Source: a virus (lineage: Duplodnaviria > Heunggongvirae > Uroviricota > Caudoviricetes). Taken from it: a DNA stretch of 15,995 nucleotides. Position numbers: made by a program. Within the stretch, counting starts at the first letter, position 1. Each line of letters starts with the position of its first letter. Location of the stretch: IMG/VR virus record IMGVR_UViG_2531839661_000011, one strand, 5' to 3'. Positions 3,001-9,000 of this stretch are shown here, one piece after another.

Positions 3001-6000
3001 CAGGCTATCACGAAAGCCGTGACGGACTCAAAGCACTGGGCGCAGAACGTCACCATTACATTAATCTGGCACGCGCAGAGAACCGTGTTACAGGTCTGGT
3101 GGCTGGAGAACGCAGCACAGCCAGCGAGCAACAGTTAGGCTTACTGATAGTCATGCAGAAAATCGAGCAGGCAGCATTTGACGAGGCGATACAGAGCGGC
3201 ATGACACCGACCGAAGCGGTGCGGGAGGTTGCCTGCCGCATGGAGACGTTCGCCAGCCTGATGACGTCAGCGCCGTCTCTGGGGGTGAATCATGCGTAAT
3301 TATGTTATCCCTCCCAATCATGAAGGCGGTTATATTTATGTGGCGCTTTCTGACATTGGATTAGTTAAGGTTGGAAAAACCAGAAATGTTTCAGCCAGAA
3401 TGAAACAGCTATCCACTGGTAGCGGCATAGTAATCACTAAAGTCGAGGTGTTAGGGCCATTTGTTAATTACGGACAAGTCGAATTAGCTATTCATGCAAA
3501 ACTTACATCAGAACGCCGTTCTGGTGAGTGGTTTTCTGCTGATTTTGATACGGTTAAAGCAATTGCTATCGATACATCAGGAATAGGTACTCCTGGTGCG
3601 GAATTAGTTAACAACGATGCTTATCGCTACGAACGCGTGTTTTTATGGTTTAGTGCGCATGAGGAACAAATTAAATACGAACAAGCACTTTGCGAAATAT
3701 TATCTGATACGGCAATTAACTTTCTTAAGGAGTATGGCACAGCTTGCGCCCCATATGTTGCTTTATGTATTCACACAATGGGGGGTGTAACTCTTCAACA
3801 GGGACAAAAGGCCTACTCTGTATATCCTTGTGGATTTAAAGAGTCCACATTGGATCAGTTAAGGGAGGATTGGAATAATTTTGCAGATAAAGATATTTTC
3901 GAAGACTCTGATTTTGATGATTTTCTTATAGACATAAGTGATAAAGATAAATTTAAGTCAGAAGCTGAGGAATGGAGAACTGATGCAATAAATAATCTTT
4001 TCACAGAACTCACCGATGATTACCAGCGCTGGCTGGCCCGTCGCATGGGAGAGCATGAACATGCCTGACATCCTCAAACCTGCTGTCCGGTACATCGACA
4101 CGGCGGATAAGTTCGCACTACTGAACATCAACCATGCTGATTACATGCGCCATATCGTGAGCCATTTCGCCGCTGAGCGCATGAAACACGTTAAGCATTA
4201 TCAGAAGGAGGCTTTATCAAATTATCGCACTGGTGGCCCTGTACGGCGCGAATATCCGCATGATGCAGGAATGGCAGGCAAAACAAAGGCGACCACGAAA
4301 GGGTCGCCAGTGGAGATAAAGGAAATCAAGCGCATCACCAACTATGCCATGAGTGTAGCTGGTGGACAATGCTATCAGCCAGGCGGTCGGTTTTTAGTGG
4401 CTTTTAACCGCCGTGGGTATTTCTCGACAAAATCTTCAAGGGCAAATTTTTTAGCTTTTGTATGTGATGCCTTTGACTCGTCATCACATGTTTTTCCGCG
4501 CCTTATCCTGTTTTCAATAAAACGGGAGGCGGCCTTTTTATTCAGCGATGAATCAATGGGGCTGCTCCCTGTTTGCTGCTCGACAATGGCATCCATGAGT
4601 AGTTGGTGTTGTAGTTGTCGTAAAAATTTCTCATCTTCTGGTGGTAAATCCATACTTATTTCCTGTACAGCGGAGCGACGCAGCACCTCACACCACGGCG
4701 CTGATGGTTGTTATTCGTTTTATGGAGTCAAAGAAGCAAAAGCGGATCGCTATCGGTTTTTAGGCGAGATTAATCGCCGTGGGTATTTGTCCAGAAATGC
4801 CTCAAGCGCAAATCGTTTTGGTCTGGTGAGAGGAGAGGGATTAAGCAAAGACTCACGTTCCAGGCGTACTTTTTCGCGCTGGCGCTCAAGTATGGATAAT
4901 GCGATTTCCTGTAATTCTTCATTTGTCATTGTCTGTACCCGTAAAGCGGTGCGCTGTAGTACCTCATATCACAGCGCAGGTATTTTTTATGGTTGTAATT
5001 TGCGTGATGATTCAGGTCGCTTTGCGACATACTGCATAAACATAAATAACGTGATGTTATTATGTGCTTTCAAAGAAAACGCAGGTATTTTTCGCACAAA
5101 CTTCTCTCGCAACACATCCGACCACTTAAGCAAAAAAGCGGCATATACTGAGGCTATCCCTTATAAAACGGGGATCGGGCGTAGGAACCCGTTTAACTGT
5201 GAGGCGACAAATGACGCCAGAAGCGTCTTTTTTTCTGCCAGCGATTTACGCCATATCAATGGTGTTGTGCATTGTGCGTACCCGTGCACCATCCAGTCAT
5301 TTCACGAGTTGCATTTTGCACAGCGCCACCAGCAAACAATGGTGATGCTGGCGGGGCTACCGAAAGGTAGGCCGGAGTCCTTACAGTCCGGTATTCCTAC
5401 CCCCGCCAGTGTCACCGCCCTGTGTGAGCGTAGGAACTCCAGCGGTGACGTTATTTATCACTGTAAGGAGGCTGCCACTATGGCTACTACCCCTACCCTG
5501 GTACATTCTCAAACCGCCTTCATCTGGCGCTTTATCACTGTTGGCACGTCAGAACGTCAAATCATCCACGTAACCGCCTGGACGGAACTCGAAGCGCGTA
5601 ACCGTTGCCCGTCAGGTTGCGTTGCTGTATTCGCCGCCCGTATCCGTCAGGAGGCATCACATGGATAAAAACATGTTGATCGCCTCTTCTTTCGGGCTGT
5701 ATGATGCCGGAGTCGCCCACATGGCGACCGGGTTTAGCAGCCTGAATAAATTGGCGGACAGCCGCCCATATCCGATAAGCGGTTTTTTTGTGTCCGTAAA
5801 CCTACCCATACCCGCATTATGGCGGGGCGTAACGGGGGAGCCTTTGCGCTCGCTGGTTTCCCAATTTGCCAGTCTGCTAACCCTGTTACGTCTCGCCACC
5901 ACGTTTAGCAGCGTAGTAGCGAGACTCCTTAACATTAAATTGGGAGCCTTTCACATGGCTGTATCCGCACGCCCTTACTTTGTCTGGCGCTTTATGCAGT

Positions 6001-9000
6001 GCCTGACAGACAGCATTGCAATATTCACCGTTACCGCTGCCACTGAGCGCGAAGCACGCGCCCAGCTGCCGCACGCACATCTTATTTTTGTCGCCCGTAT
6101 CCGTCAGGAGGTGACTCATGCTTAAAACCTTCCGCGTCTTTTCCCGTGCTGTTAATAAGCGCGGCTATACCGTTGGCATCACGCAGAACGTGAAGGCCGA
6201 AAACGTCCAGGCTGCAATCAGCACAGTAATTAACAAATCAGCTAAAGCCGGTTTATCCGGCGTAATTATCCACGCAGTGACATGTATTCAGGATGAGGAG
6301 TAATTCATGTGTGATTTTTCCGATATGACTGTTGATGAAGCAGCAAAAAGCGCAATGCAGGCAGAACTTATTTGTTCTCTGATGATGGGTAACACAGGTG
6401 AAATGACTGAGGGTGAGATTGAGTCATTGCTCGCCCTGATTAAGCAGCTTACAGGTAAGGCAGGTAGCTGGCTGATTGCTGCATCGGGTGATGATGCAAT
6501 ATGCGTCAATGACTGAATCCTTTGTTGTTCTGAATATCATGAAATTAAGGGGGTGCAGTAATGCAGCAAATAACACTGGCAGAAGCCTCACTGCAAGCGC
6601 AACAGGTCGAAGTAATTAGCCGCATGATTGAACGCAACCACGAAGAAATAGACGACCATGACCTTTCTGTTATTGCAGGACTTATCAAACAACTTTCCAG
6701 CAATGTGGCGGTGTGGTTAATGACGGAGGAAGAAAAACGCGGCGAACAATAACGGCTAAAAATAAACGGGAAATAAATATTAAGACGACTCCTTCAGGAG
6801 ATTAATTCAATGGCATCAAAAAATACTGGCTTAACTGCCAGTAGCAAAACTCACCCCGAATTTATGTGCGGGGATATTTACCGCAATGAATACGGTAGCC
6901 ACATGACGATGATCAGCAGAGGTAAGAAATGAAAAGCGCACCGAACTTAAAAAAACAGCCTCGAGGGAAAAAACACGCCGATACGGAAGTGATTATTTTC
7001 GCTGGCAGTGATGCGTGGGCGCACGCGAAACAGTGGCTGGAGCAGGACGGAAAACTTGCCGGAGATAATATACCGCCCGTCGTGCTGGCTGATGAGCAAC
7101 TTAAAGATATTGGCAATCTGCAAATTGTACCCGACGGGCGCAAATCAGCGCGTATATACAAGGCCGGACACCTCGATCAGGTGATGGTCAAAGGCATAGG
7201 TCAGAAGCTGGCGGCGGCAGGCGTACAGGACGCAGACTATTACCCCGAAGGTATGCACCATAACGAGCGGCAGAACTGGCGTAACTATCTGGAGACTGAG
7301 CGCAAAAACATTTCTGACGGGCTGGTTATTGAGCTGCCTGTAAAGAAAAAAGAGCGGGGAAAAGGTGATGATGCCACATCACTGGCGCTAAACCAGATGG
7401 GGGCAAGCCAGCGCGGCGAAGTTCTTCTGGCACATTATGGCGGCGAACTGGCAATAAACGCAGACTCTGACACAGTGCATTATTACAACAGTGTTGTATG
7501 GGTTCCCGTACAGGATAAAGAGCTACAGCGCACAATGGCGCAAATCTTCATTGACGAAGATATCTGCTATTCACAAAACGCCATAAAATCGGCGGTTGAT
7601 ACCATGAAGTTAAGTTTACCCGTAATGGGGAATACCGCCCGCAACCTGATTGGATTCAGTAACGGGGTATTTGATACCCGTACAGGTGATTTCCGTGAAC
7701 ACGATAAAAATGACTGGCTGTTAATTGCCAGTGAATTACCGTTCACCCCACCAGCAGAGGGTGAAACGCTGGCAACACATGCGCCGAATTTCTGGAAATG
7801 GTTGCGCCGTTCGGTGGCTGAGAATGACCGCAAGGCAGATCGCGTTCTGGCAGCGTTATTTATGGTGCTGGCGAACCGGTACGACTGGCAGTTATTCATT
7901 GAGGTAACAGGTCCTGGTGGAAGCGGTAAAAGTGTTATGGCAGAGATTTGTACCATGCTGGCAGGTAAGGCCAACACGGTATCGGCAAGCATGAAGGCAC
8001 TGGAGGATGCAAGGGAACGTGCATTAGTGGTTGGCTTTTCACTGATTATTCTGCCGGATATGACCCGCTACGCGGGTGATGGTGCAGGGATAAAGGCCAT
8101 TACGGGCGGTGACAAGGTGGCAATTGACCCGAAACACAAAGCGCCATACTCAACGCGTATTCCGGCGGTTGTGCTGGCGGTTAACAACAGCGCCATGTCA
8201 TTCAGTGACCGCAGCGGGGGGATCTCACGTCGTCGTGTGATATTCAATTTTTCGGAGGTTGTACCGGAAAACGAACGCGATCCGATGCTGCCGGAAAAAA
8301 TAGAAGGTGAGCTTGCTGTAGTGATTCGCCATTTGCTTACGCGCTTTTCTGATCAGGACGAAGCCAGACTCCTGTTACATGAGCAGCAGAAATCAGAGGA
8401 AGCCCTTGCGATAAAGCGTGAGGGGGATTCGCTGGTGGACTTCTGCGGCTATCTCATGTCGTCGGTAATGTGTGACGGCCTGTTAGTCGGTAATGCTGAG
8501 ATTATTCCTTTCAGTCCACGCCGTTATCTCTATCACGCCTATCTGGCTTATATGAGGGCGCACGGGTTCAGTAAGCCCGTAACACTGACGCGCTTTGGTG
8601 CGGATATGCCAGGTGCAATGGCGGAATATGGCAGGGAATATATGAAACGGAAAACGAAGCACGGATTGCGCTCAAATGTGACGCTGACAGAGGAATCGGA
8701 GGACTGGATGCCGTCATGTGCACCAGTGAAAAATGAGGGTGATAAAAATTAAGTTATAGAAAAACTGTTCACCACTGTTCACCCTGTAATAAATGTATTT
8801 AGTATCAATATGTTAAGGGGTGAACAGTTTTGTAAAACTATTCACCCAAGTGTTCACCTGTTCACCCTGTTGTTTGATTTTTGAACAGCAAAGGGTGAAC
8901 AGGGTGAACAGGGTGAACAGTTGGTGAACACCTTTACAAAAAGTGTTCACCCCTTAACTTCATGAATCTAAAGGTGAAATAGCAAAAGGTGAACAGTTGA

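Follow-up and report, generated by a model that had tools for sequence, protein, structure and literature searches.

The 15,995-nucleotide (nt) viral sequence analyzed here in full (hereafter the window; IMG/VR record IMGVR_UViG_2531839661_000011) carries at positions 5177-6125 what are probably two complete, functional antisense-RNA immunity modules of the C4/CI class, arranged head to tail with different specificities and located 5′ of a primase operon. Sequence, structure, homology, and covariation are established directly for both units. We regard the assignment of both modules to the C4/CI class, typified by the C4 RNA of phages P1 and P7 and the CI RNA of P4, as very likely, and we place the overall explanation, in which two such modules with different specificities lie head to tail ahead of the primase operon, at a probability of roughly 0.8.

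A covariance-model search with Rfam, the check suggested by a preliminary reading of the DNA made without database searches (the sequence-only reading), detected the C4 antisense RNA (RF01695; gathering score, 45 bits) over its full model length in both units, with 69.0 bits at 5335-5422 and 73.3 bits at 5815-5903. The proposal of two tandem C4/CI-type units was thereby upheld. The icd-like open reading frames (ORFs) proposed to close the units were likewise recovered by the Icd-like model NF033153, which describes host cell division inhibitors (cutoff, 25 bits), at 5480-5668 (58.7 bits) and 5955-6125 (53.7 bits); the same model gave 52.7 bits for P7 Icd and 73.9 bits for the P4 cI/ash ORF. 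A permissive Rfam scan placed matches to isrK (RF01394; gathering score, 50) and c4-a1b1 (RF03163; gathering score, 46.7) 5′ of each C4 RNA. The isrK matches lie at 5156-5233 (49.6 bits) and 5712-5789 (37.6 bits), and the corresponding c4-a1b1 scores are 24.6 bits (E = 0.0015) and 32.4 bits (E = 6.6e-6). Despite the sub-threshold scores, the window has the c4-a1b1 architecture, in which b1 comes after a hairpin that carries a1 in its loop, and relatives of unit 2 reach 46.8 to 48.5 bits. P4 and P7 share the same Rfam/NCBIfam signature of C4, isrK/c4-a1b1, and Icd-like matches. The C4 and seqA RNA genes are unannotated in RefSeq.

Unless stated otherwise, all features described below are on the plus strand. 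Unit 1 is preceded by a putative promoter at 5121-5149, read from the sequence, with a −10 element TATACT (5144-5149) that ends 7 nt 5′ of the start of the isrK-like match (5156). Its leader (5156-5234) resembles IsrK and seqA by both Rfam models, a terminator scan, and collinearity with P4 seqA. Within this leader, a1 (GTAGGAA, 5181-5187) is located in the loop of a CGGG/CCCG hairpin and b1 (ACTGTGAGG, 5196-5204) is single-stranded; the terminator scan identified a hairpin at 5213-5227 followed by a run of seven T residues (5228-5234). The C4/CI-type antisense RNA 1 (5335-5422), collinear with and 69% identical to the P4 CI region, exposes b′ (TCCTTACAGT, 5378-5387) in the loop of hairpin 2 and carries a′ (TTCCTAC, 5394-5400) further 3′. 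The b′ segment is the perfect complement of ACTGTAAGGA and pairs with b1 using one G-U pair, while a′ is complementary to GTAGGAA at both 5181-5187 and 5430-5436. In the downstream target region (5428-5471), a2 (GTAGGAA, 5430-5436) is followed by b2 (ACTGTAAGGA, 5460-5469), which overlaps the Shine-Dalgarno sequence AAGGAGG (5465-5471) located 8 nt before the ATG at 5480. This ATG opens Icd-like ORF 1 (62 amino acids, 5480-5668), the counterpart of P4 kil.

Unit 2 repeats this order with different sequences. A promoter scan found TTGATC and TATGAT separated by 18 nt at 5676-5705, ending 7 nt 5′ of the isrK-like match (5712); the position of this promoter-like site is kept in the other, diverged leader allele as TTGCAA, 18 nt, TATGCT. 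The c4-a1b1/IsrK-like leader (5712-5789), 81% identical to P7, contains a1 (TTAGCAG, 5734-5740) within a hairpin loop and b1 (AAATTGG, 5748-5754). Folding predicts alternative hairpins, 5753-5757/5762-5766 or 5760-5765/5779-5784, ahead of a T7 run at 5783-5789: the former hairpin forms in the free leader, and the latter, a terminator stem beside the U-run, forms when a1 and b1 are blocked. The C4-type antisense RNA 2 (5815-5903), identified by RF01695 and by mapping from P7, has a mature form of approximately 5821-5900 according to its alignment with the annotated P7 c4. Its b′ segment (TCCCAATTT, 5859-5867) is complementary to AAATTGG and to AAATTGGGA, and its a′ segment (CTGCTAA, 5874-5880) to TTAGCAG at 5734-5740 and 5905-5911. 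The downstream targets (5903-5946) are a2 (TTAGCAG, 5905-5911) and b2 (AAATTGGGA, 5937-5945), the latter overlapping the Shine-Dalgarno sequence GGGAG (5942-5946) of the ATG at 5955. Icd-like ORF 2 (56 amino acids, 5955-6125) begins at this ATG, which aligns with the icd ATG of P7.

All motifs and complementarities listed in the sequence-only reading were confirmed as exact by reading of the sequence and by exact-match search, and several of its structural details required revision. The RNAs, given there as about 62 nt, are really approximately 78 to 80 nt long (the Rfam matches span 88 to 89 nt), and their fold consists of three helices rather than a cloverleaf. The upstream target pair, small hairpin, and T7 terminator are all present, but it is the hairpin loop that presents a1, and together with b1 and the terminator these parts make up one IsrK/seqA-like leader. 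A spacer of about 110 nt had been assigned to both units; the T-run and the C4 RNA lie ∼100 nt apart in unit 1, whereas in unit 2 this distance is as short as ∼25 nt.

As had been proposed, neither unit matches the recognition sequences of the other. The longest exact complementarity is 7 to 10 nt in cognate pairs and only 3 to 5 nt in cross-unit pairs, and cross-unit duplex energies are approximately half of the cognate values. On the plus strand of the entire window, exact matches to GTAGGAA, TTAGCAG, and ACTGTAAGGA are confined to the predicted sites, and AAATTGGGA has one extra copy at 1586, far from the units. When the loop segments were scanned across the whole window by duplex energy, the cognate sites did not stand out, since G-rich sites arising by chance scored equally well; the exact-match and comparative tests were used in its place.

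Pairwise alignments to phage records trace the two units to different relatives. Window positions 5337-5498 are 69% identical to the P4 "ash/cI" region, and unit 1 is collinear with P4 seqA, terminator, CI, seqC, and kil, with all four recognition sites changed in concert relative to P4. The alignment runs end to end through the leader hairpins, looped a1, b1, T-run terminator, a spacer of ∼100 nt, CI/C4, a2, b2 on the Shine-Dalgarno sequence, and the ATG. Positions 5724-5913 share 80.7% identity with the c4 region of P7 and 75% with P1; between the a1 hairpin and the icd ATG, unit 2 aligns collinearly with P7 and has the same a′, a1, and a2 but a different b′. The leader-to-C4 spacing is 179 nt in unit 1 versus 185 nt in P4, and 103 nt in unit 2 versus 108 nt in P7. 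These alignments agree with the earlier proposal that the units follow the logic of P1 c4-icd-ant and P4 CI, and they correct the notion of a tandem duplication. Because unit 1 is collinear with P4 while unit 2 is 81% identical to P7, the tandem is a junction of two lineages, a P4-CI-type unit joined to a P1/P7-c4-type unit, and not a recent duplication.

To follow the modules across related elements, 163 loci encoding Icd-like relatives were chosen by Icd similarity from viral and metagenome collections; representative genomes of GTDB contributed only 3 loci. The loci were searched with a covariance model made from the two window RNAs; against the concern that two sequences might yield too narrow a model, Rfam cmscan runs on 20 and on 17 of the loci gave the same matches. 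In total, 114 plus-strand C4 units were found in 92 of the 163 loci. Compensatory changes on both sides were present in 13 of the 27 pairs of the C4 fold, and 96.8% of cells were paired, compared to 39 to 47% in slid-partner controls, with none of 500 shuffles reaching the observed score; since the alignment was fitted to the model, these pair counts lean towards structure.

The recognition segments vary together. The units comprise 35 distinct (b′, a′) specificities drawn from 24 b′ loops and 12 a′ alleles, and across these a1, b1, a2, and b2 all change with the RNA loops at fixed offsets (a2, +1 to +8; b2, +32 to +38; a1, −73 to −82, or −153 in the P4-like type; b1, −56 to −68). The median longest complement for b2, a2, b1, and a1 is 8, 7, 7, and 7 nt in cognate pairs versus 4, 3, 4, and 4 nt in non-cognate pairs, of which no more than 3% attain the cognate median. 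The sequence-only reading had named, as an outcome that would speak against it, homologous islands in which loops and targets are not co-conserved; instead, the targets covary with the loops. The unit-2 scaffold is near-invariant except for hypervariable b1, b′, and b2 and a two-allele a system, the pattern expected if specificity were under diversifying pressure.

Tandem arrangements recur. Two C4 units located 462 to 490 nt apart were found in 22 of the 92 loci, the window included, a fraction that is not a prevalence since the loci were collected by Icd similarity. The 22 tandem loci represent 19 specificity combinations, and the same specificity never occupies both units. In an Rfam recheck, 17/17 tandem loci had two C4 matches (67 to 82 bits). 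Among the other tandem loci scanned, 15/17 had isrK leaders at 52 to 66 bits, above the gathering score, usually 5′ of the first unit; locus L087, where unit 1 lies within range, had no isrK match above the gathering score. Other loci contain an Icd-like ORF without a detectable C4 RNA, followed by a full unit. At least 33 of 5,426 complete Escherichia coli genomes hold at least 80% of 5335-5960. An identical 20-nt sequence, CGCCCGTATCCGTCAGGAGG, closes both icd ORFs of the window (5635-5654 and 6092-6111), encoding the ARIRQE end and supplying the Shine-Dalgarno sequence of the next ORF; crossovers that shuffle modules probably occur here.

Both units are embedded in longer reading frames. 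An ORF of 535 amino acids from the ATG at 4061 (4061-5668, open from 3992), in phase with Icd-like ORF 1, holds all of unit 1 and ends as this ORF; the NCBI Prokaryotic Genome Annotation Pipeline (PGAP) annotates 4016-5668 as a 550-amino-acid "Icd-like protein." A second in-phase ORF of 154 amino acids (5661-6125), with GGAGG (5650-5654) preceding its ATG, holds all of unit 2 and ends as Icd-like ORF 2. PGAP labels it a "frameshifted" Icd-like gene here and annotates it as an intact 154-amino-acid protein in a comparison locus (L003, 3111-3575). The first ORF is a candidate counterpart of P4 eta, and the second is a candidate eta-like relay ORF. In P4, the eta ORF (214 amino acids, 8168-8812, minus strand) shares an overlap with the alpA-like gene before it and encloses P_LE, seqA, CI, seqC, and the in-phase kil; the passages of PMC10111431 that summarize Forti et al. 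(1999) state that eta translation prevents termination.

Consecutive genes of this region overlap by 8 nt. The overlaps join rha (2580-3299) to the GIY-YIG gene (3292-4068) at 3292-3299, the GIY-YIG stop to the ATG of the long ORF at 4061-4068 (ATGCCTGA), the icd1 stop to the ATG of the next ORF at 5661-5668 (ATGGATAA), and the icd2 stop to orf61 at 6118-6125 (ATGCTTAA). Running from rha to orf61 through the GIY-YIG gene and the ORFs of both units, these four overlaps suggest one translationally coupled relay. The frame in phase with the icd ATG is open throughout the C4 RNA in 84 of 85 distinct units, a count inflated by related sequences, and in 71 leaders stop trinucleotides number 18 in the icd phase versus 426 and 255 in the other two. 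Of 34 distinct unit-2-type leaders, 31 have their upstream ATG 294 nt from the icd ATG, and in 5 of these 31 a 12-nt loop is offset by a 1-nt deletion elsewhere.

The long ORF itself shows few signs of a conserved protein. Its N-terminal 376 amino acids have no match in NCBIfam, Pfam, or PHROGs, and no frame of 4069-4374 shows a coding signal, the synonymous/non-synonymous pattern there giving no support for protein-level selection. Two paralogous small ORFs on the minus strand (4375-4653 and 4750-4929) lie antisense within it; they share a C-terminal K(K/R)FALExFxxKYPRRL motif, have no match in NCBIfam, Pfam, or PHROGs, and are both left unannotated by PGAP. Since the substitution pattern of 4375-4929 favors the minus strand and 4069-4374 carries no coding signal, at most the openness of the long ORF, and not its protein sequence, is under selection. 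The alternative that the 550-amino-acid ORF is purely an annotation artefact, a shadow of the minus-strand ORFs, is less favored in view of the 8-nt overlaps, the in-phase depletion of stops, and the precedent of P4 eta.

By analogy with the characterized systems, each promoter would start an IsrK/seqA-like leader, with a1 exposed in a hairpin loop, b1 left single-stranded, and an intrinsic terminator at the T-run as its end. Read-through transcripts would carry the C4 precursor, which RNase P would be expected to cut at the conserved AU↓GG to release an RNA of ∼78 to 80 nt, the typical product of such processing in the C4 family being ∼77 nt; the sequence context is AU↓GGU at 5339-5343 and AU↓GGC at 5819-5823, fitting the GGW motif cited for RNase P processing (PMC5320573). 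The a′ and b′ segments of C4 would pair with a2 and b2, masking the Shine-Dalgarno sequence of the Icd-like ORF; the untranslated mRNA would then be terminated, and the coupled downstream replication genes would stay off, as in P1/P7 immI and in P4. Pairing with a1 and b1 would act on the leader; in unit 2 it is predicted to do so by freeing a CCGC segment for terminator formation. Ribosomes coming from upstream genes, or from a derepressed icd1, would translate across the next module and so override it, in the manner of P4 eta. Full silence would then require both RNAs, and a resident island would keep incoming relatives repressed whichever of the two specificities they carry.

How the two units are connected is the least certain part of this scheme. 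The sequence-only reading placed two switches in series in front of replication genes. The P4-family primase operon does lie downstream, and the units are collinear, each with its own terminator and masked Shine-Dalgarno sequence, which would suit independent sequential gates: the primase operon would be reached only by transcripts that evade C4-1 as well as C4-2, and the in-phase ORFs would not be usefully translated. The 3 of 34 unit-2-type leaders that are uncompensated and out of phase and the lack of protein-level constraint on the long ORF at 4069-4374 also fit such a double lock. However, unit 2 has its own conserved promoter-like site, and unit 1 therefore cannot gate transcripts from it; moreover, the 8-nt overlaps, the good Shine-Dalgarno sequence before 5661, and the in-phase depletion of stops mirror P4 eta, whose translation overrides termination. 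Since each unit combines its own promoter-like site with an in-phase ORF coupled to the preceding gene, simple series gates are probably wrong, and we consider them unlikely. A relay with two promoters, two locks, and an upstream override is favored because the coupling chain should carry ribosomes from upstream genes or from icd1 across unit 2; it has about an even chance of being correct. Its extension to an orthogonal immunity system is more tentative and, in our estimation, rather doubtful: the relay would cancel the next module, and the hypervariable b′/b1/b2 triplets (24 loops, 12 a′ alleles) would serve as a large set of orthogonal immunity "barcodes" driven by competition among satellites, two barcodes conferring double dominance. 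If this joint reading is true, an island with two barcodes silences incoming islands of either type and escapes residents with only one.

Two further explanations deny a regulatory role to one unit or to both. One unit could be a relic of recombination that no longer regulates its own island and at most supplies a trans-acting RNA to exclude competitors. Modules have clearly been shuffled among islands, as the 19 combinations and the identical junction CGCCCGTATCCGTCAGGAGG attest, and some loci have an icd ORF lacking an upstream C4 before a complete unit; nevertheless, both units of the window retain an intact fold and Icd-like ORF along with a promoter-like site and all four cognate sites, and covarying targets are kept in both units of other tandem loci, making decay of either unit improbable. 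The region could also be purely protein coding, its RNA-like features incidental to "Ash family" and long Icd-like proteins. Pfam Phage_ASH matches the translation of nt 5144-5509 with 68 bits, PHROG "transcriptional repressor" families match the same stretch, PGAP predicts a 550-amino-acid coding sequence, and the frame is open. Against this, the compensatory base-pair changes preserve helices while rewriting codons, the covariation of four sites with the loops is inexplicable by a protein, in the window the element is retained although an indel of 1 nt in the loop throws ∼90 nt out of frame, and the P4 "cI/ash" ORF covers the experimentally defined CI RNA. Covariation identifies the conserved signal as that of an RNA, and a protein-only origin has a very small chance of being right.

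Several observations weigh against two working modules joined in a relay. All leader matches in the window fall below the Rfam gathering scores. The unit 1 promoter, with its poor −35 element, is absent from the consensus promoter scan, and folding of the unit 1 leader predicted no switch on blocking of a1/b1: the terminator forms in both predicted states, so RNA-dependent termination is unsupported in unit 1. From 4375 to 4929, the long ORF is antisense to the minus-strand ORFs, and the substitution pattern favors the minus frame; the out-of-phase leaders and the sampling and relatedness of the loci, noted above with the counts they affect, also count here. A few metagenomic units have a b′ loop that fits b1 and not b2 (L090, 1206-1350; L155, 3313-3457; L089, 3337; L109, 725). 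In these units b2 belongs to another specificity class, and they may be recombinants without self-repression or chimeric assemblies. Finally, transcription, processing, repression, and the translational relay are carried over by analogy from P1/P7, P4, and Gifsy-1.

The immunity region of satellite phage P4 is ordered P_LE, seqA, CI RNA, seqC, nested eta/kil, and then the alpha primase operon; the window shares the Rfam pattern of C4 plus isrK (the latter below its gathering score), an Icd-like ORF in the place of kil, a long in-phase ORF overlapping the preceding gene, and a putative P4-family primase downstream. However, P4 has a single module, and its recognition sequences are GTGAGAA and TTCACAGGA, whereas those of the window are GTAGGAA and ACTGTAAGGA. 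The P4 genes sid, delta, and psu are unannotated in the island, which is therefore PICI-like (phage-inducible chromosomal island) rather than P4-like. With the immI region of P1 and P7 (c4 RNA, icd, ant1/2), unit 2 shares the 80.7% identity to P7 over a1b1, the terminator region, c4, and a2, the identical a′ CTGCTAA and a1/a2, the aligned icd ATG, b2 placed over the icd ribosome-binding site, and coupling of icd to the next gene via a start/stop overlap. The b′ loop is TTTCACAATCG in P7 and TTTCCCAATTTG in unit 2 of the window; P1 and P7 have a single unit, and their cargo is the Ant antirepressor, whereas small ORFs and a primase follow the units of the window.

The isrK locus of the Salmonella prophage Gifsy-1 (IsrK, STnc1160/orf45, anrP) is similar in its IsrK-type leader small RNA, its leaky terminator, and the C4-like processed RNA located 3′ of it. 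There, the small ORF orf45 is translated across the C4-like RNA and coupled to anrP (PMC4825925). It differs in being a single unit, in that the short IsrK RNA trans-activates translation, and in its antirepressor-like cargo, which leads to AntQ toxicity. Gram-negative and helper-embedded PICIs, as described in passages of PMC10111431, belong to the same island class, with integration, Bro, replication, and late zones. Those passages report that the C4 and isrK Rfam profiles match several PICIs and suggest an immunity function; they do not mention tandem heterospecific modules, four-site covariation, or specificity diversity. That IsrK corresponds to seqA, and C4 to CI, has likewise been published before. 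Each single module is thus a textbook system, and C4 and isrK in such islands have been noted before; what appears to be new is the recurring heterospecific tandem layout. A literature search of incomplete coverage, which is weak evidence, found no earlier account of tandem heterospecific C4 modules or of four sites that covary over a large number of specificities.

In E. coli O43 RM10042, an island between yicC and dinD is identical in sequence to the window. The island encodes an integrase, an HTH_17/AlpA-like ORF, Rha, GIY-YIG, the two units, three small ORFs, a primase, SSB, a ProQ/FinO protein, PerC-family proteins, and a Q antiterminator, and no virion or structural genes are annotated in it. 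This gene content (integrase, AlpA-type regulator, primase, chromosomal site, and no annotated virion genes) is, as read from the annotation, that of a Gram-negative PICI-type satellite. The putative cargo under control of the units spans 6118-8752: orf61 (6118-6303), whose ATG overlaps the icd2 stop; two small ORFs with phrog_1478 matches (6307-6516 and 6561-6752); and the P4-family primase (6929-8752), which scores 94.3 bits with TIGR01613, under the cutoff of 108.7, and is annotated by PGAP as "DNA primase family protein."

Elsewhere in the island, a ProQ/FinO-family gene lies beside SSB at 9951-10418 (L001, 13852-14319); an RNA chaperone of this kind could help C4-target pairing. Two exact copies of CGCAGGTATTTTT (4975-4987 and 5080-5092), 105 bp apart, lie in the divergent region between a minus-strand small ORF and the unit 1 promoter and may form an operator pair. 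The int-alpA RNA (RF02996) was not detected in the window by the Rfam scan and is present in several related islands, among them L051 (1098-1164), L006 (78-146), and L165 (662-727).

The arrangement exposes a systematic mis-annotation, in which PGAP, Pfam Phage_ASH, and the PHROGs "transcriptional repressor" families read translations of RNA genes as proteins. It also offers a natural library of orthogonal antisense RNA/target pairs in one scaffold, which could serve synthetic regulation. For the biology of the islands, it would show that PICI-type satellites combine the RNA immunity systems of P4 and of P1/P7. Immunity specificity would then be a fast-evolving modular trait, in which a loop and its three or four targets change in concert and whole modules are shuffled among islands.

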